From positions 32,001-96,000 of the forward strand of contig JBKBRF010000006.1 in NCBI GenBank assembly GCA_046292385.1: DNA of 64,000 nucleotides. Reading direction: 5' to 3'. Of the stretch, positions 31,621 to 47,795 are shown piece after piece. Both the position numbers and the translations under genes were made by a program. The notes beneath the pieces were generated by a model, which worked only from the letters and a program-made list of their open reading frames with translations, was not told the DNA's origin and made no database searches. This DNA is from Armatimonadota bacterium. Its GTDB lineage: Bacteria > Armatimonadota > SYMT01. The stretch's first letter is position 1. Every line of letters begins with the position of its first letter.

Positions 31621-33063
31621 ATGATCAGCATCAAAGGCAATAAAGCACGGCTGTGTGATGGCATTACCCGCCGCGATTTTGTGCGCCTGGGGGCCATCGG
31701 CACCATGGGTCTCTCACTGCCCGCGCTGCTCCAGGCAGAGGCCGCCGCCAAGGAAGCGGCCCGCGCGGCGGGGAAGAGCTCGCCGCGTGAGAAGAACGTG
31801 ATCCTCTTCTTCCTGATGGGCGGGCAGTCCCAGCTCGACATGTGGGACATGAAGCCGAACGCGCCGGAGATGGTCCGCGGCGAGTTCAAGCCGATCAACA
31901 CCAGCGTGGACGGGATCCAGATCTGCGAGCACATGCCGGAGCTCGCCAAGCGAGCCCACAAGTTCACCATCATCCGGTCGATGACCCATCACGTGAAGAA
32001 CCACGCCCCGGCGGGGTACTTCGCTCTGACGGGCCACGTGCCGAAGCGGGACGTCAATAACTTCGGGCTCAACTTCGACGACTACCCGGCGGTCGGCTCC
32101 GTGCTCTCCCTGATGAAGCCGAGCACCCGGCCGGTGCCGTCGTACGTGCAGCTCTCGCCCTCGCTGGTGGGGGATACCGGCATCCAGATGCCGGGCTTCC
32201 ACGCCGGCGTGCTGAGCGCCAAGTACGACCCGCTGAAGGTGACGAACGACCCGAACGACCCCAGCTTCCAGGTGGAGGAGCTCTCCCTTCCGAACGGTGT
32301 GACCGACGACCGCTTCAAGGCGCGCCGGTCTCTGCTGCAGATCGTCGAGGACGAGTTCCCGCTGCTGGAGCAGTCGCCCGCGCTGGGGCGGATGGACAGC
32401 TTCTACCAGCGCGCCTTCAACATCGTCACCTCGCCGGAGGCGCGCAAGGCGTTCGACATCAACCAGGAGCCGCTGAAGCTGCGGGAGCGCTACGGCCGCA
32501 ACATCTACGCCCAGCAGCTTCTGCTGGCGCGCCGGCTGGTGGAGTCGGGGGTGCGCCTGGTGACGATCGTCTGGGGCGGCCCGATCAACGCGCCGCTCGA
32601 CTACTGGGACACGCACCAGGGCAACTTCCCCAAGCAGAAGGACAAGCTGATCCCGGTGTTCGACCAGTGCTACAGCGCGCTGATCGACGACCTGGAAGAC
32701 CGCGGCATGCTGGAGGACACGCTCGTCCTGGCGATGGGCGAGTTCGGCCGCACCCCGCGGGTGGGCCAGATCACCGCCAACGGCGGCACCGACAGCACCG
32801 GGCGCGATCACTGGCCGTTCTGCTACAGCATCACGCTCACCGGGGCCGGCATCCAGACCGGCCAGGTGATCGGCAAGAGCGACGAGACCACCTCCACCTA
32901 CGAGGAGCGGCCGGTCACGCCGCAGGACATGATCGCGACCATCTACCACGCACTGGGAGTGGATCACCACGCGGAGATGCACGACCAGTTGAACCGCCCG
33001 CTGCCGATCGTGCGGGACGGCTCGCCCGTTTACGAGCTCTGGGGCAGCCAGCCGAAGGCGTAG
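31621..33063 (+). CDS. DUF1501 domain protein
   Basis: TRRDFV, GGQSQLDMWDMKP, LLARRLVESGV, WDTH, GEFGRTP and GRDHWP. Confidence 0.92.
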   Translation: MISIKGNKARLCDGITRRDFVRLGAIGTMGLSLPALLQAEAAAKEAARAAGKSSPREKNVILFFLMGGQSQLDMWDMKPNAPEMVRGEFKPINTSVDGIQICEHMPELAKRAHKFTIIRSMTHHVKNHAPAGYFALTGHVPKRDVNNFGLNFDDYPAVGSVLSLMKPSTRPVPSYVQLSPSLVGDTGIQMPGFHAGVLSAKYDPLKVTNDPNDPSFQVEELSLPNGVTDDRFKARRSLLQIVEDEFPLLEQSPALGRMDSFYQRAFNIVTSPEARKAFDINQEPLKLRERYGRNIYAQQLLLARRLVESGVRLVTIVWGGPINAPLDYWDTHQGNFPKQKDKLIPVFDQCYSALIDDLEDRGMLEDTLVLAMGEFGRTPRVGQITANGGTDSTGRDHWPFCYSITLTGAGIQTGQVIGKSDETTSTYEERPVTPQDMIATIYHALGVDHHAEMHDQLNRPLPIVRDGSPVYELWGSQPKA

Positions 33064-40683: not shown

Positions 40684-41769
40684 TCACTGCGGCGGCTCCC
40701 AGATCTCCCACTGCACCCGCCGCAGGTCATACGCCTTCGGGTAGCGGAAGCGGCCCTTCCGCGCTCGGAGCCCGTCTTCCACCACGGCGAAGTCCAGGTC
40801 GAGGCCCTGCCGCTCCGCGGGAGTCAGCAGCCCCAGCGTCTGCTTCCGAGCCTCCGCCGGACCGGCGAGAAGCGAGGTGAGGGCGTAGAGCTGGATCACC
40901 GGCGCCTCCAGGCCCCATTCGGCTTCGCGCTGCTCGGACCTGAGCCAGTCCTTTGCGGCCCGCTGCTCAGCGCGCAGATACGCCGGGTACACCGCGCCAG
41001 CCTCCACGAAACGGCCACCCCGCCAACCCAGCACCATCGGGATGAAAGGCCCGCCCACGGTAGCATTCTTCCAGCCCGCGAAGCCGTCGTAGTCGGCCAG
41101 CAGCTCGAGCGCGTCGTCACTATCGACATCCTTCGGCTCCAGTCCGGTAATGCGTCGGGCACCGTAAGCGAGAAGACAGGCCGGCTTCGGGCCGAGGGAA
41201 TAGACGTAGTAGTTGGCCCAGATGTTATTCCCGCCGTTCCACTGGCAGAGGATCACCTCCGGCAGTCCGTCCTGCGTCAGGTCTCCGGTCCACTCCACGG
41301 AGACATCGAAGTCGGAGATGCGAGCGGCGGTTCTACCCCGTGGATCCCGGATCTCCAGGGTGGCGAGGGCGCCGTTCGGACGGTCGCGCTCGACCCACTT
41401 CCACAGCTTGCACGCACCGACTGCCTCCACCCGGAGCGGTGCTCGCGGATCCCACGAGGGCGGCTGGAAGCCGTTCGCCGCGACCCAGACGCGGCATATG
41501 GGGGAGAAGAAGACGAACGGCCACTCACGCCCGGTATAACCGTAGCTCCAGCCGTCCCGCTCCTCGGGGATAAGGCGGGGGCCAGGCCCCAGCGCCACCG
41601 GGCGTCCGAGCTCATCGGTCTGCTGACGGAGGGACGCGGCGGGCTGGCTGAAGTCGAAGACGACCGCCGCCGCACCGGCGTAGAGCAGGCCCACGACGAG
41701 CGAGAGCGCGATTCCGATGGTCAGGACGCGGAGGCGCCTAGCTGACTTCTTCTCGCGTAGTTCGTTCAT
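40684..41769 (-). CDS. Hypothetical membrane-anchored protein with DxxDG repeats
   Basis: N-terminal TM (VLTIGIALSLVVGLLY), GDLTQDGLPE and KDVDSDDALE. Likely start is the ATG at 41769. Confidence 0.55.
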   Translation of the reverse strand: MNELREKKSARRLRVLTIGIALSLVVGLLYAGAAAVVFDFSQPAASLRQQTDELGRPVALGPGPRLIPEERDGWSYGYTGREWPFVFFSPICRVWVAANGFQPPSWDPRAPLRVEAVGACKLWKWVERDRPNGALATLEIRDPRGRTAARISDFDVSVEWTGDLTQDGLPEVILCQWNGGNNIWANYYVYSLGPKPACLLAYGARRITGLEPKDVDSDDALELLADYDGFAGWKNATVGGPFIPMVLGWRGGRFVEAGAVYPAYLRAEQRAAKDWLRSEQREAEWGLEAPVIQLYALTSLLAGPAEARKQTLGLLTPAERQGLDLDFAVVEDGLRARKGRFRYPKAYDLRRVQWEIWEPPQ

Positions 41770-41992
41770 CCCCGGCGGGCCCTCCGCGCTGGCCGGTACG
41801 ACATCACGCCGCCTGAAGGGCCGCGCAAGGATACTGTTGGCGAAATCAGCTGAGCAGGATGAACACGAGCGGCCAAGCACTCCGGCGAGATTCCCCTAGC
41901 GGGGAAGCGGTGGCAAGCCACCGCACTCCACAGACTGCACCGGCGCAGTCTCCCTTTCGACGAGAGGGAATCTCTTCCGAGCTAGCCTGTGG

Positions 41993-42013
41993 AGATTCTA
42001 TGGTTCGCGTCAA
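41993..42013 (-). promoter_or_regulatory. -35 half of IS110 circle-junction promoter
   Basis: TTGACG at 42013-42008. After circularisation at CT it lies exactly 17 bp from TATGTT (43291-43286). Confidence 0.75.
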
Positions 42014-42073
42014 GCGGAAAGTTCGAGAGGAGCTCTCGCACGCAGCCCCGCGGAGCCGGCGGCGCCGAAAACA

Positions 42074-43105
42074 TCACGGGTTCGTCGCCGCCGGCTCCGC
42101 TTCGGTGGATCCTGCGGGGACCGGGGCGGGCTCACCCCGCTTCGGGCTCGCCGGCTGTCGGTAGACCCGCTCGGGGTCATACTCTTCCCCGTGCTTCACC
42201 ACCGCCCAACAGACTTTAGCGATCTTGCGGGCGACCGCATTCAACGCTGCCGTCTTCGCCAGACCTTTGGCCAACTCCCGCTCATACTGCTGGCGGAACG
42301 GACTGTCTTTGATCCGGACGTTCGACTTGGCGGCCAGATAGAGCAAGCGGCGTAGCTCGGCATCGCCTTCTTTCGTGAGGCCATACTCCCCCGCCCGCTT
42401 TCCCGATTGCCGTACCCGGATATCCAAGCCGATATACGCCACTACCTGATCCGCGTGGGCGAAGTCATGCGAGGTAAGCCGGGCCGCGAGGGCGGCGGAA
42501 ATCACGGGGCCGATGCCGGGGATCTTCCGCAGGGCCTTGGTGGCGGGGAACTTCTCCTTATCCTGCGCCCGCTGGGCGATCTGGCGATCCAGCGCCGTCA
42601 ACCGCGTCTTGAGGTCGGCGACGGCCTCGGCCAGCACGTCCGCGGCGTACGGGAGCTCGCGGCGCTGCTGCTCCAAGCTGGTGAGGGCGGACCGTAAGCC
42701 ACGGCGGGCGCGCAGGAGTTGTTCGAGAGCTTCCACGTCGGCGCTCTTCACCGGGAACGGGCGCAGCCCCTCTGCTTTGGGTCGGGAAGCGGCGAACATC
42801 GCCAGCCCCCGGGCCGCCAGGCGGTCGGTCGAAGCCCGAGTACTCAGCGAGCGGAGGTAGGCGTGCACTTTACGAGGCGGGGCCAAGAGGACGGTCCGTC
42901 CCGCTTCCCGGGCCTGGTGCACGACCAGATGGCAGTAGCGCCCGGTGGGTTCGACCACCAGGGGGACGTCCGCCGGGGTGCGGGCCAGGAGCTTCCGAAT
43001 GCCGGCCGGGGTGTTCGGCACGGAGCCTTCCCAGGCAATGCGTTCGGAAGGACGGTCGAAGAGGGCGCAGACGAGTTCGGCTTTGCTGACATCGACTCCT
43101 AACAT
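42074..43105 (-). CDS. IS110 family transposase/recombinase
   Basis: LGVDVSK, VEPTG, STDRLAA, IPGIG, RQSG, G..ELRRLLY and AVARK. The ATG at 43105 has a GGGAG RBS; the ORF track starts at 43138. Confidence 0.95.
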   Translation of the reverse strand: MLGVDVSKAELVCALFDRPSERIAWEGSVPNTPAGIRKLLARTPADVPLVVEPTGRYCHLVVHQAREAGRTVLLAPPRKVHAYLRSLSTRASTDRLAARGLAMFAASRPKAEGLRPFPVKSADVEALEQLLRARRGLRSALTSLEQQRRELPYAADVLAEAVADLKTRLTALDRQIAQRAQDKEKFPATKALRKIPGIGPVISAALAARLTSHDFAHADQVVAYIGLDIRVRQSGKRAGEYGLTKEGDAELRRLLYLAAKSNVRIKDSPFRQQYERELAKGLAKTAALNAVARKIAKVCWAVVKHGEEYDPERVYRQPASPKRGEPAPVPAGSTEAEPAATNP

Positions 43106-43127
43106 GTGGGTAGCTCCCGAGGGGTTC

Positions 43128-43280
43128 CTCTCCCGCACACTTGCGGTACATGGCCGGTCTCCTCACGCGTGAGGGCCGTGGGATTCCTCATCGGCGGTGA
43201 GAGGGAAGAGGAGGTCTTCTCCAGACGTCCGTCCCCGAAGGGCGGCAAGTGCGGATGACCTTCCTCTTCCTTCCCACCTG
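43128..43280 (-). ncRNA. Putative IS110 bridge RNA (target-binding and donor-binding loops)
   Basis: Two stem/internal-loop/hairpin modules, one with a cUUCGg tetraloop on the minus strand. Guides ATCCGCACT and TGGAG match the target; AGGAATC and GCAAG partly match the donor. The ends are approximate. Confidence 0.75.
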
Positions 43281-43505
43281 GAGCTAACATACAAGTGCGA
43301 ATGCTTGCTTTCGCGCCCCGCGCCAGCGGGGCACCGGAGAAGCTTCTCGATTTCGTCAACAGTATCCGCAAGCGCGTCACTCCGCGAAGAGTCGTGCGGC
43401 GGGACACTTCGACGGGGCTGCTGGAATGACCGTGTGCGCGGCCTCGCTTTCGTCTTGACTGTCCATTCCTGGAGGCGGGGGCGCGCTCCTTCCCGAGAGC
43501 AGCGA

Positions 43506-46500
43506 CTACCCGCGACGCGCCCAGACTTCCACGGGAACGCCGTCCCGGTCGCCGGACCAGAGCTGCTCCGTGCAGGTGCGGCGGAGCAGGTTCTTCCAGA
43601 GCTGGGCGTGGGCGAACGTCTCCTCGTCCGGGCAGAAGAGCGAGAAGACGGAGCGGGAGGCCACGAGGATCAGCTTCTGCTTGGCGCGGCTGAGCGCCAC
43701 GGTGAGGCGGCGCGGGTCGAGCAGGAACTTGCTGCTGGCGAGGAGGTACTCCGGGTCGCTCTCGGTGGCGCTGACGACGATGACGGTGCGCTCGCCGCCC
43801 TGGAACCGCTCCACGGTATCGACCGCCGACCGCGGCGGCCCGTTCTTACCCGCGACGGTGAGGAACGGGTAGGCGAGCTGGAGGTCGGCGCGCTGGGCGC
43901 GGTGCGGCACCACGATACCGAGCCCTTCCTCCGCGTCGAGCGCGTAGAGCCCCGCGTCGGAGAGCGCCTCCAGGACCGGCTCCACCAGGTCGCGCTCGAA
44001 GGCATTGCGGTTCTGGCTGGCGCGCTCGTCGTGGAGCACCACCACCAGCGGGTAATCGGGAGCGAGCACGGCGGCGACGAAGTCATCCGCCAGCTCCCGC
44101 GGCTCCAGCTGCTTGCGGCGGGCGGAGCGGTAGGGGATGCCGTCCTGCTGGTAGACCTCCCGCCGCAGGAACTCCGCCATCTCCGCGTGGAGGCGGAAGC
44201 TCTCCTCGAAGCGGATCACCGGCGGCGAGAGCGGCAGCAGGGTGAGGAAGAGCGACTCGTAGGCGCGGTACTCCTGGAAGGTGCGGCGCGGCTCCGCGGC
44301 CCAGTCGTGCTTCACGATCGGCGGCATCTGGCGGTGGTCGCCAACGACGATGAGCTGGCCGTCGGTGCGGAGCGCGAGACCGGCCATCACCGCTTCCGGC
44401 AGGTTCATCTGCGAGGCTTCGTCGAGCACCAGGCACTCCGCCAGGGCGCAGTCGAAGAGAGCCTTCGGCGATTTCTCCCGGACCATCCCGTAGATGCCGC
44501 CCGGCGTGGCGGCGGCGACGCACCACTGCTGGTCCTGCAGGGCATCGGCCGGCCTCGGATCTCCCTTCTCCCGGCGGGTCTCCTTCGCCAGCGGGATCAC
44601 GCCTTCCGGCGGCGCCTCGCGGCCGTCGATCCGGAAGAGCGGCACGTTCAGGAGGCGCGGGTCGAGGTATCGGTCGAAGAGGTCCCGCCGCTGGTCGCGC
44701 AGCTCCCGCAGCCGCTCCCGGACCTCCACGACGTTCTGGAGCAGCACGTCGGTCGCCGCGTGCGTCTTGCAGGAGACGAGGGCTCGGAGCGGCTGACACG
44801 CCGCCATCGCGCCCTGCAGCCGGGCAAAGAGGGCGAAGGCGGTGGAATAGCTCTTCCCGGTGCCGGGAGGGCCCTGCACCAGCAGCACCGGGTCGCCGCC
44901 GTGCCGGCCGATGAAGGCGCGCTTGCTCTCCTCGAAGTCGTGGAAGAGCCCCGCCGTCCGGAACGCCTCCAGCCCCTCCAGGAACCGCGCCTGCCCGGCC
45001 GCCGCTTCCGTGGGCCAGGCCACGCTCGCCGCCGCGCCCGGGGTGAGCCGCTCGTAGACGGCACTGCGCCCCGTCTGCGCGCCGCGCTCCAGCTCGCAGA
45101 GCGCCTCGACTACCTTCTTGCTCCAGTAGCCGTACCAGTTGTCCGGGGAGACGTCGAGCGAGTAGGCCATGCCTTCCCGCAGGGGCCGCTCGATCGAGCC
45201 GAAGACGAAGCCCTTCATCGCCGCGTTTCCGCGCGAGGCCTGCAGCTCTACCTCCAGCATCGCTCCGGTGATCCGGCCCGCGGCGTCCCGCTCCGGCTGG
45301 ATCTCGACCAGCTCCGCCCGCACGCCGTAGAGCATCTGCTTGGGGGTGGGGGTGAACTCCTGCCGATCCTCCTCCGGCAGCCGCTCGTCGACGGTCCAGC
45401 GAGGGTTCAGCACCACCCGCTCGCCGCGGCGGAGCGTGGTGAGCGCCAGGATCTCTTCCGCGGAGCAGTCGATCCCCTCCGTCTCCAGCCGCAGCCGCAC
45501 GCGGAGGCCTTCCTGGCTCCACTGGCAGGCGTCCCGGTCCTCTTTGGCGAGCTTCACCTTCTGCGCGTCCGGGTTCTGCTGCCGCCACTCCGCGTAGAGC
45601 CGGTCTTTCAGCAGCCGGCGGCGCTCGTTCTCCCGGTTGCGCTCCAGCACCTCGGGGTCCTGGTCTTCCGGGCAGAAGCGAGCGAGCAGCGTTTCCCCCA
45701 TCAGCACGCGGCGCTCCGGGGCGGCGTGGCGGATCGCCTTCCACTCGCCCAGCTCCACGTGCCGCTCGATCGTGACGAACTCGTCCAGCGCCTGGGCCAG
45801 CGAGCCGGCGCGCTCGCGGAACTGCGTCAGCGCCGTCAGGTCGAAGGCTCGCTTCTCCGTCAGCTTGTTGCCGCGGAAGTCGGCGGCGATCCGCTCCAGC
45901 GCTTCCAGCCGCCGCTCCTGGAATTCGCGGATCAGCTCCGGCGTGGCGGCGCGGTAGTCCGCGTAGTCGTCCCGCTTCCCGGCGGGCGGCTCCAGGTCGC
46001 CCCACGCGGCGTAGGCGTACTCCAGCGGGATCTGGCTGTTGAAGCGAGCCCGGCGCGTGTACCAGGCCTCCGCCTCCGGGTCGAGCGTGCCCCACTCGTC
46101 GAAGAGCCGGGCGCGGAACGTCTCCCGGAACGGAGCCCAGTCGAAGCCGAGGTGCGCCGCCACCGCCTGGAGCGACTGGCAGACCATCGGGTAGTTCTTC
46201 AGCTCCCGGATCTCGCGGTCGAGGAAGGTGGCGATCGGGGAGTCGAACGCCGCGAGCTGGGTCATGAAGTCGTAGAGCGCGGGCGCGGTCTCCAGCAGCG
46301 CGGAGAGGTGGCGGGAGAGCGCCTCCAGGAAGAGCCGCTGCTCGAAGCTGTTGTAGAAGACCAGGTGGACCGGCGCGGAGAGGGTGCCGTCCACCGCCGG
46401 CTCCACCAACTCGGCGACCGCCAGCAGCGTGTCGCGCATCCAGGCGGCCAGAAGCGCTCGCTCCCGCTCGGGCGTGTCGGGCGGCCCGTTGGAGAGGTGG

Positions 46501-47795
46501 ACCACGCTCCGGCTCCGTGCCGGCTCTCCGCCGGCGCAGGCGACCACCCGCGCGCCAACCAGGTAGAGCCGGTCGTGGAGGTAATCGTGCTGCGCGTCGA
46601 GGTAGATGCGGACCAGGTTCGGGTTCTGCTCCGCGTCGCAGTAGGGCAGGGAGCCGTAGCCGGAGCCGGGGATGGAGCGCGGCGCCTCCAGCGGATCGCC
46701 CTTCCACCCACGGTAGCGCCGCGCGCGGTGGATCAGCTCGTCGAGGCGCGGGCCGACCGGCCAGGTCGTCGCCGCGCGGGCGCACCGCCCCTCCTGGCCC
46801 GGCGTGGGCGAGAGACTCCAGTCCCGCGGCGCGTCCGGAGCCGCCGGCGCGGGCTCCTTCAGCGCCGCCAGCTCCGAGGCGGTAGAGATGCCGAGCCGCC
46901 GCAGCGCCGCCTTCTCACCCGCAGCCAGGTGCGGGATCAGCGCCAGGTCGTCGGTCTCGGCGCTCCACTTCAGGCAGAGCTCGTTGTAGAGGCAGCCGTC
47001 GCACTTGTAGCTCAGGTGGTAGGAGAGCTCCTCGAACGGCGCGGAGGCGATGCCGCGGGCGGTGGAAGCGGCGCCGGTCACCAGGTCGGCGACGGCATCG
47101 AGGTAGGCCTCCGGATCGGCGACGACCTCCAGCAGCGCGCCGTCCCACCCGAACCGGCGGCGGGTCTCCTCCCGCAGCGCCGCGTCGTCTCCGCCCTCTT
47201 CTCCGCGGAAAAGGAGAGCGGTCCCGATCTCCGCCGCGACCCCCGCCGAAGCGAAGAGCCGCCCCAGCATGGCGTGGTAGAAGGCGACCTGCAGCCGGTG
47301 CTCCACCCGGGCGTGCGCGGAGCTCTTGACGTCCGCGATCAGCACCTGCAGGGCGCCGTCCTCCGCGCGCTCCAGGCGCAGCAGGTCGGCGTCGCCGGTC
47401 AGCAGCCACCCCTCCACCTCTACCCGCAGACGAGGCTGCAGCAGGAGCAGGGCCTCGCCCGGAGGCAGCTCCACGGCGGCCCGCACGATGGCGGCGTTGT
47501 CGTCCTCCCGCTCCAGCGGCTCCCGCTGCTCCCCGAAGTGGACGGAGCGGAACCGCGCGCGCAGCGCCGCCTCCACTTCCCGCTCGAACTGGCGCCCGGA
47601 GCGAGTCAGCAGCGGCGGGATCGCCTGCGGCGCCACGTCGTACTCCCGCAGGAACCGGGAGCCGTGCTGCGCCTGGTGCAGCCGCAGCCGCAGGTAGCGG
47701 GAGCACTGCTCCAGCCGGACGAACTGCGAGATATCGGTGGGGCTCACCCGCAGCGGCGCGGAGGAGGGAAGGAGCGGTAGGAAGACGGGGGGCAT
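43506..47795 (-). CDS. Dna2/TM0106-like Fe-S RecB-type nuclease fused to SF1 (DNA2/NAM7) helicase
   Basis: Nuclease motifs SPTDI..C, GDADLL, ADVKSS, QVAFY and CDGCLYNELC. Helicase motifs QGPPGTGKS, DEASQ, GDHRQ, TVERFQGGE and VALSRAK. Confidence 0.85.
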   Translation of the reverse strand: MPPVFLPLLPSSAPLRVSPTDISQFVRLEQCSRYLRLRLHQAQHGSRFLREYDVAPQAIPPLLTRSGRQFEREVEAALRARFRSVHFGEQREPLEREDDNAAIVRAAVELPPGEALLLLQPRLRVEVEGWLLTGDADLLRLERAEDGALQVLIADVKSSAHARVEHRLQVAFYHAMLGRLFASAGVAAEIGTALLFRGEEGGDDAALREETRRRFGWDGALLEVVADPEAYLDAVADLVTGAASTARGIASAPFEELSYHLSYKCDGCLYNELCLKWSAETDDLALIPHLAAGEKAALRRLGISTASELAALKEPAPAAPDAPRDWSLSPTPGQEGRCARAATTWPVGPRLDELIHRARRYRGWKGDPLEAPRSIPGSGYGSLPYCDAEQNPNLVRIYLDAQHDYLHDRLYLVGARVVACAGGEPARSRSVVHLSNGPPDTPERERALLAAWMRDTLLAVAELVEPAVDGTLSAPVHLVFYNSFEQRLFLEALSRHLSALLETAPALYDFMTQLAAFDSPIATFLDREIRELKNYPMVCQSLQAVAAHLGFDWAPFRETFRARLFDEWGTLDPEAEAWYTRRARFNSQIPLEYAYAAWGDLEPPAGKRDDYADYRAATPELIREFQERRLEALERIAADFRGNKLTEKRAFDLTALTQFRERAGSLAQALDEFVTIERHVELGEWKAIRHAAPERRVLMGETLLARFCPEDQDPEVLERNRENERRRLLKDRLYAEWRQQNPDAQKVKLAKEDRDACQWSQEGLRVRLRLETEGIDCSAEEILALTTLRRGERVVLNPRWTVDERLPEEDRQEFTPTPKQMLYGVRAELVEIQPERDAAGRITGAMLEVELQASRGNAAMKGFVFGSIERPLREGMAYSLDVSPDNWYGYWSKKVVEALCELERGAQTGRSAVYERLTPGAAASVAWPTEAAAGQARFLEGLEAFRTAGLFHDFEESKRAFIGRHGGDPVLLVQGPPGTGKSYSTAFALFARLQGAMAACQPLRALVSCKTHAATDVLLQNVVEVRERLRELRDQRRDLFDRYLDPRLLNVPLFRIDGREAPPEGVIPLAKETRREKGDPRPADALQDQQWCVAAATPGGIYGMVREKSPKALFDCALAECLVLDEASQMNLPEAVMAGLALRTDGQLIVVGDHRQMPPIVKHDWAAEPRRTFQEYRAYESLFLTLLPLSPPVIRFEESFRLHAEMAEFLRREVYQQDGIPYRSARRKQLEPRELADDFVAAVLAPDYPLVVVLHDERASQNRNAFERDLVEPVLEALSDAGLYALDAEEGLGIVVPHRAQRADLQLAYPFLTVAGKNGPPRSAVDTVERFQGGERTVIVVSATESDPEYLLASSKFLLDPRRLTVALSRAKQKLILVASRSVFSLFCPDEETFAHAQLWKNLLRRTCTEQLWSGDRDGVPVEVWARRG

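Follow-up and report, generated by a model that had tools for sequence, protein, structure and literature searches.

The window, that is, the whole 64,000-nt stretch analysed here (positions 32,001 to 96,000 of contig JBKBRF010000006.1, from an Armatimonadota bacterium), carries an insertion sequence (IS) of the IS110 family. It is very probably an intact, bridge-RNA-guided member of the IS110 group, inserted at a CT core into a multi-copy hairpin repeat, and the joining of its ends in a circle would make a promoter for its bridge RNA and recombinase. The ends, the core and the junction strings are confirmed as real observations; the interpretation advanced by an earlier note on this DNA, IS110 ends with a promoter at their junction, is supported at the level of sequence comparison. 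Coordinates are window positions; element, cores and promoter halves lie on the minus strand. The element, its cores, its gene and the two promoter halves are located as follows.

41993..43295, minus strand: IS110-family insertion sequence with both CT cores, delimited by the empty-site comparison
43294..43295, minus strand: left copy of the CT core
41993..41994, minus strand: right copy of the CT core
42074..43105, minus strand: recombinase gene, 343 amino acids from the ATG at 43105; D5, E52, D94 and S234 present, Ala97 at the position of D105 in IS621 of E. coli
42008..42013, minus strand: -35 half TTGACG, in the right end, 13 nt from the core
43286..43291, minus strand: -10 half TATGTT, in the left end, beginning 2 nt past the core

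The element proper spans 41995-43293 (1299 bp; 1301 bp counting one core). On the element strand, the left junction reads ...GCAAGCATTCGCA-CT-TGTATGTTAGC and the right one ...TTGACGCGAACCATAGAAT-CT-CCACAGGC. Its limits were established, independently of the earlier note, by an empty-site test, in which 41800-43500 was compared by blastn with the window's own assembly (7.0 Mb, 91 contigs): 43 matches to the left flank stop precisely at 43294, and 44 matches to the right flank begin precisely at 41994. Left and right flanks abut, with a 2-base overlap, in 35 pairs, all of which read GCAAGCATTCGCA-CT-CCACA, with one CT. Each of these pairs is an empty site, with just one CT, in contrast to the two junction copies of the occupied site; the element therefore consists of 1299 bp plus one CT. 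The ends given in the earlier note, 41993 and 43295, are thus exact to the base, within the 2-bp ambiguity of position inherent to a duplicated core, and the CT core it had reported at both junctions (43295-43294 and 41994-41993) is read directly from the sequence and recurs in 35 of the 35 empty sites. The lack of terminal inverted repeats, also claimed, was confirmed: a repeat search found no pair linking both ends, and the best ungapped match between the first 25 nt and the reverse complement of the last 25 is 13 of 25, a value equalled in 270 of 5000 shuffles.

Assignment to the family is based on the recombinase, which features the Pfam domains DEDD_Tnp_IS110 (PF01548, 1.5e-18; N-terminal, RuvC-like) and Transposase_20 (PF02371, 1.9e-21; C-terminal, Tnp); among homologs of solved structure, ISCro4 is matched with E = 4.5e-22 and IS621 with E = 4.2e-20. 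The open reading frame as called has 354 amino acids; the true start is likely the ATG at 43105, giving a 343-residue product that begins MLGVDVSK. Only 79 nt of right end lie beyond the stop codon, and the left end measures 188 nt. Membership of the IS1111 group, where the guide RNA lies 3' of the recombinase gene and the left end is short, is ruled out, as all guide motifs are found in the left end.

When right end, CT and left end are joined, by a script slicing the window, the product contains TTGACG, a 17-nt spacer and TATGTT, in agreement with the consensus at 9 of 12 positions, A2 and T6 of the -10 box included. Sites satisfying the same criteria number 454 in the 14.1 million strand-bases of this genome (67-69% G+C), and 90 of 200,000 random joins generate one across the joint. 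The promoter described in the earlier note is therefore correct in its strings, and far above chance. Its formation "only on circularisation" holds with a qualification: a site is present on the joined ends and none is found in situ (0 promoter-like sites in 41700-43600, 0.1 expected), but both results are in silico, and integrated IS621 is reported to be weakly transcribed. In the integrated copy, the flanking sequence 17 nt upstream of TATGTT, read by eye, is GCGAAA (3 of 6). The donor sequence of IS621, which the earlier note had given as ACAGTATCTTGTAT, is the one listed in Supplementary Table 2 of Durrant et al. 2024 and in the BridgeRNADesigner readme; the junction of the window element, ATAGAATCTTGTAT, is indeed close to it, sharing 12 of 14 bases.

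The proposed sequence of events is as follows. In the integrated element the -35 sits in the outermost right end and the -10 in the outermost left end, with 1.3 kb between them, so that just weak or read-through transcription would be expected. Recombinase and bridge RNA would excise a circle, in which right end, one CT and left end abut; the abutted ends would form the sigma-70-type promoter TTGACG-17-TATGTT, with transcription starting near 43279. The transcript would comprise a bridge RNA of about 150 nt and then the recombinase mRNA, and the circle would be pushed to re-insert. Promoter activity, the start site, circle formation by the window copy and its present activity are what we infer; the ends and core, the lack of inverted repeats, the promoter-like junction with its conservation, the covarying RNA fold and the guide matches are what the sequences show. 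The behaviour itself, which the earlier note had given as known for IS110 circle junctions, is published for IS621: junction promoter and bridge RNA have been demonstrated (PMC11208160; PMC11208158), and a 177-nt RNA has been mapped (PMC11208160). The integrated IS621 copy shows weak read-through transcription, which is required for excision; once the junction has formed, its promoter raises expression (Hiraizumi et al. 2026, PMC13626964). For the window copy, read-through could be supplied by an SF1-helicase-like gene (43506-47795, minus strand), co-oriented with the element and ending 211 nt upstream of it.

A further feature lies close to the -35 half.

42050..42100, minus strand: hairpin with a 20-bp stem across the recombinase stop codon, found by the repeat search (95% complementary)

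This hairpin sits just upstream of the -35 half, and is retained, with both arms changed, in the sister copies described below. It may insulate or terminate transcription upstream of the -35.

Conservation of the ends was analysed in a phylum-level sample of 401 genomes, 15 of which, including the window's own, contain a match at E <= 1e-30. Eleven loci, with 48-54% protein identity, were used for the end analysis; L038, L039 and weaker matches (partial or below 46% identity) were left out. No relative was found by a recombinase search of the genome-contig collection, which holds one genome per species, nor by an order-level search, where none of the 7 other genomes matches at E <= 1e-40 (the order counts 8 genomes in the collection). 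All 12 aligned right ends (the 11 loci and the window) contain CTTGAC, 4-6 variable bases and CCATAGAATCT; TGTATG is invariant in the 8 aligned left ends, and the left-end terminus TTGTATG is present in 9 of the 11 loci. In the nine related copies with both ends, which represent five distinct elements (five copies of one element in genome G133, plus L034, L035, L036 and L037), the junction invariably reads TTGAC[A/G/C]-17 or 18-TATG[G/C]T. Joins of flank and left end, in comparison, give a promoter site of any kind in 1 case out of 10.

These data bear on the possibility that the promoter resemblance is a by-product of the junction motifs' other role. The -10 shares bases with TGTAT, the right donor half-site, and the left donor half-site lies within the spacer; both half-sites would be conserved anyway, because they are needed for guide pairing. 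Yet the TTGAC, located 13-14 nt past the core, is found unchanged in all 12 right ends, next to bases that vary, and guide pairing offers no explanation for it, because the -35 is outside the 14-bp donor site. The spacing of 17-18 nt is also retained in the relatives. In IS621, moreover, a 22-bp donor recombines when the RNA is provided in trans, the -35 being required just for RNA expression (PMC11208160). A by-product is, on these grounds, highly improbable, and a conserved promoter, split between the two ends, is the preferred interpretation.

Joined ends were also looked for as such. For the window element the expected joint is ...CCATAGAAT-CT-TGTATGTT... A search with the conserved-junction pattern identified two metagenome contigs, L054 (1401 bp) and L055 (1361 bp), each containing one recombinase gene, 50% and 53% identical to that of the window, and each featuring an exact 127-bp overlap of its termini. 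By virtue of this overlap, L054 is a circular assembly of unit length, with 1274 bp, and L055 one with 1234 bp. In both, right end, CT and left end are joined at the predicted bases, and the split promoter is joined with them. Circles or tandem joints therefore exist for relatives of the element; none was observed for the window element itself. That tandem copies, arranged head to tail, are the main source of the junction, ahead of free circles, is very unlikely. A unit-length circular assembly with a 127-bp overlap cannot be distinguished from a tandem dimer by assembly alone; against this, the junction pattern has no match in the genome-contig collection and none in the window's own genome, and circles are the demonstrated intermediate of IS621 (PMC13626964). 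Excised circles remain the preferred source of the junction. Four of the 22 listed sequencing runs (X1, X2, X3, X15) were compared as Logan contigs, which cannot reveal rare forms. They contain three skip joints ending at 43294, one of which, from 41992 to 43294 with 2 bases shared, corresponds exactly to the empty site, and no starts or ends. The RNA run X15 provided one contig, covering 42601-42812 alone.

The RNA presumed to direct recombination is encoded in the left end. The guide frame was taken from the IS621 template (PMC11208160, supplement), and yields the following features.

43127..43279, minus strand: predicted bridge RNA, about 153 nt; start placed from the IS621 spacing, 3' limit at the end of the donor-loop outer stem
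43248..43256, minus strand: left target guide AUCCGCACU, same sense as the target left half plus core ATTCGCACT, 8 of 9
43217..43225, minus strand: right target guide UCUGGAG and handshake AA; the guide, 43225-43219, pairs with CTCCACA at 6 of 7
43182..43189, minus strand: left donor guide GAGGAAUC, against donor ATAGAATC 5 identical bases and one G-T wobble, by eye
43138..43144, minus strand: right donor guide, proximal GCAAG, then handshake UG; GCAAG pairs with CTTGT, with a G-T wobble

Position 43279 is the probable start, given a spacing identical to that of the mapped IS621 RNA start. Folded as a single sequence, the left end scores -86.5 kcal/mol (z = -3.1); the consensus fold of 8 left ends consists of two stem-loops with internal loops and contains 32 pairs, of which 19 show compensatory changes. 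When 41500-43800 was scanned against Rfam (E <= 1), no bridge-RNA family matched; four matches to microRNA models, obtained in the same scan, are due to chance and reflect the hairpins. One loop of the RNA would guide the target, ATTCGCA-CT-CCACA, and the other the element's own joined ends, ATAGAAT-CT-TGTAT. The 8 of 9 score of the left target guide is reached by 2 of 2000 shuffled targets, and at homologous places relatives score up to 9 of 9 on the left and up to 7 of 7 on the right. A score of 5 of 7 for the right target guide of L034 is an artefact, the guide lying beyond the 100 nt scanned: GGGAGAG is visible in its left end. The left donor guide GAGGAAUC sits within the invariant block CCGATGA.GAAT, and the right donor guide GCAAG is the same as in wild-type IS621, G-T wobble included. 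The handshake pairing reported by Hiraizumi et al. (PMC11208158) fits as well: the first A past the right target guide faces donor T7, the U past GCAAG faces target A7, and both can pair. In 8 of 9 related loci the base past GCAAG is a G, facing target C7.

Two side observations concern the RNA. A C-rich strand, CCCUCUCACC, can pair, by eye, either with the RNA 5' end, GGUGGGAAGG, or with GCGGGAGAGG, the 3' strand that closes the donor loop; the regions involved are 43265-43279, with 43196-43205 and 43128-43139, and the same choice of pairing is seen by eye in relatives (GGUGGUGAGG / CCUCACCACC / GGUGUGGGAGG). The bridge RNA may thus have alternative folds at the donor loop and 5' end. In locus L035:1-259 (G293) the right target guide pairs at 7 of 7 with the right flank, and the left flank reaches at best 7 of 9, at a non-homologous place; this left flank may have been exchanged, or the insertion may have been half-matched.

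The element interrupts a host repeat, whose two parts are found on its sides.

43296..43367, no strand assigned: host repeat, left part; target hairpin 43297-43314, 19-nt terminal arm 43349-43367
41829..41992, no strand assigned: host repeat, right part; 19-nt terminal arm 41829-41847

The repeat is intergenic, about 238 bp long, and resembles a miniature inverted-repeat transposable element, with inverted terminal arms of 19 nt; the two arms recur at the same spacing in at least 6 further copies. Insertion occurred one base past the hairpin GCGAAAGCAAGCATTCGC. The exact target 14-mer, ATTCGCACTCCACA, is present in 50 copies in the genome, about half of them no more than about 250 bp away from a contig end, and for this reason the repeats break the assembly. 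The modules of the host repeat are also found on their own, often at a similar distance (about 250 bp or less) from contig ends. Fifty copies contain the exact 14-bp target, and just one is occupied by the window IS.

A sister element, with a DNA divergence of about 7% from the window copy, is present in the same genome (loci L002-L008, L012, L014 and L016-L018). Seven contig ends (C10, C14, C18, C36, C58, C60, C71) contain a left end 93-97% identical to that of the window, and seven others (C38, C39, C40, C47, C49, C61, C66) a right end 84-91% identical; left and right contig ends cannot be paired into copies, and the assembly lacks the interior. In run X1 this sister interior has a depth of about 430-520; the window copy reaches about 46-68 and its flanking single-copy contig 46, a ratio that fits 7-9 sister copies. 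Within the first 115 nt of the left end, sisters and window differ at four positions. Two of the changes are compensatory, turning G-C into A-U in a stem; the others are a U to C in the left target guide and a C to U in the right one. The sisters' targets correspond to a different hairpin, GCGG[G/A]AGC[A/G]AGCT[C/T]CCGCA-CT-CCAAA. Their right guide UUUGGAG pairs at 7 of 7 with CTCCAAA in 6 of the 7 right-end flanks, and their left guide ACCCGCACU matches 7-8 of 9 positions in the 7 left-end flanks, both by eye. Window and sister IS look like a natural retargeting pair. A 200-bp tract, 42624-42823, is identical in the window copy and in the high-depth sister contigs, amid neighbours differing at 23-36 positions per about 300-360 bp, which suggests gene conversion between copies across this tract. 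A second, distant IS110-family recombinase gene (27.5% identity) was also found in the genome, alone on a 1413-bp contig (C91:182-1144).

A number of findings weigh against an intact, circle-forming element. Some concern the guides: taken alone, the 6 of 7 pairing of the right target guide is weak, being reached by 383 of 2000 shuffles, and the window guides mismatch their own site on the left at target position 3 and on the right at position 13. Others concern ends and joints: L032 has the right-end motif without a recognisable left-end terminus, and no such terminus was found in L047, which is cut by a contig end; the junction string of the window element has no match in its own assembly, and the Logan contigs of the four runs, where rare forms are invisible, contain no circle back-joint. 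Fifty identical 14-bp targets are still empty in the genome. The junction promoter was scored against a sigma-70-type consensus, which may not match the preferences of this host. Finally, Ala97 occupies a position essential in IS621, and because of it the window copy might be inactive.

The last point was analysed by aligning the recombinase with those of IS621 and ISCro4. The TD..DAR motif reads TDRLAAR in the window protein: Ala97 (codon 42815-42817) is found at the position of IS621 D105, so that D5, E52, D94 and S234 are present and the fourth DEDD residue is missing. Five residues before it, Ser92 (codon 42830-42832) replaces an otherwise invariant Lys. In IS621, mutating D11, E60, D102, D105 or S241 abolished recombination, and D105 binds magnesium-coordinated waters (Hiraizumi et al.). 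When the window protein was compared with its 120 closest homologs, Ala was found in the window and in P0001 (95% identical), and Asp in the other 119 of 119; the same two proteins also have Ser92 for the invariant Lys and Val80 for an Ala invariant in the other 119.

The element could accordingly be a dead relic, in which ends and promoter halves are inherited, excision has been lost and the junction promoter never forms here. Loss of a residue whose mutation abolishes IS621 recombination, the replacement of two further residues invariant in 119 close homologs, guides mismatching the copy's own site at two positions, and a single window copy among 50 identical empty targets are all in line with this explanation. 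Other features are not: the open reading frame is intact over 343 amino acids, as are both promoter halves and all RNA elements. Since the Ala codon falls within the tract 42624-42823, identical in the high-depth sister contigs, the seven sister copies share it, and this lineage of 7 copies has identical ends at different sites. Codon changes point in the same direction: among the variant positions listed (40 of 104, 25 of them in the gene), 22 changed codons are readable, and 13 of the 14 within codons 58-315 are synonymous. On balance a relic is unlikely, if a good deal less so than the two explanations discussed above, and an intact element is still preferred.

A separate question is whether the IS lineage transposes with a recombinase lacking both the fourth DEDD Asp (Ala97) and the Lys (Ser92). 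This is put forward tentatively, its chances falling a little short of even. In a survey of the family, 150 cluster representatives were considered, 135 of them with residues at both columns: 121 have Lys and Asp, and 10 lack the Asp, of which 9 also lack the Lys. L035, from another genome, features the same double loss. In a FastTree tree of 111 full-length rows (of 151), the 8 rows without Asp require 7 changes, and well-supported branches force at least 4 of these; the state of the Lys follows the loss of the Asp in 3-4 of 4 independent pairs (p = 0.125, too few for significance). In the IS110/DEDD literature available, made up of structural and bridge-RNA papers on IS621 and a review, and to which bioRxiv supplements could add, no description of natural variants at the D105 position was found. 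If the proposal is true, Asp and Lys would constitute a dispensable second-shell module, lost together several times in the family; and an active Ala97 protein would lead to a revision of the catalytic residues needed by bridge recombinases.

The element is an added member of the IS110 bridge-RNA group, and its mechanism is already known from IS621. Its value is one of annotation, not of new biology: it provides a cleanly delimited example of an IS621-type, excision-activated promoter with its bridge RNA, in a G+C-rich, poorly sampled lineage, and shows the split -35/-10 geometry conserved base for base between E. coli and the window's phylum. The 50 identical empty targets, together with a sister lineage having two guide changes and a different target, make a natural test set for guide rules.

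The closest known system is IS621 (E. coli, IS110 group; Durrant et al. 2024, PMC11208160; Hiraizumi et al. 2024, PMC11208158). The two elements share the CT core, the absence of inverted repeats, a DEDD-type RuvC-like domain, a Tnp domain with a catalytic Ser, and a bridge RNA in the left end whose target and donor loops follow the same frame. In both RNAs the left target guide has 9 nt and precedes UG, the right target guide closes with AG before the handshake, the left donor guide has 8 nt with C as its last base, and the right donor guide is GCAAG. The IS621 junction reads TTGCAG-17-TATTAT, with the RNA starting 6 nt past the -10 at CTCC/AG, where the slash marks the start (Supplementary Table 1, PMC11208160); in the window TTGACG-17-TATGTT is followed by AGCTCC/AGG, the slash here marking the predicted start, in the same layout, with the -35 in the right end and the -10 from the third base of the left end. 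Unlike IS621, the window element has a recombinase only distantly related to it, carrying Ala in place of D105 and Ser in place of the Lys that lies two residues ahead of D102; a different target, in a G+C-rich, poorly sampled host; and a bridge RNA whose separate 5' stem-loop is absent throughout the window clade, the target-loop stem starting about 2 nt past the predicted start. The best solved relative is the ISCro4 recombinase (PDB 9t56), whose alignment extends over residues 2-314 and whose domain order is the same; its motif is the complete TDAVDAR, as opposed to the TDRLAAR of the window protein. As to the choice of target, ISPpu9 and ISPpu10 of Pseudomonas putida (PMC12288879; bioRxiv 10.64898/2026.03.19.712850) are IS110 elements whose insertion sites are multi-copy repetitive extragenic or conserved intergenic sequences. 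The window element, whose target is a hairpin in a multi-copy intergenic repeat, resembles them by description, in a different host and with a different repeat family.

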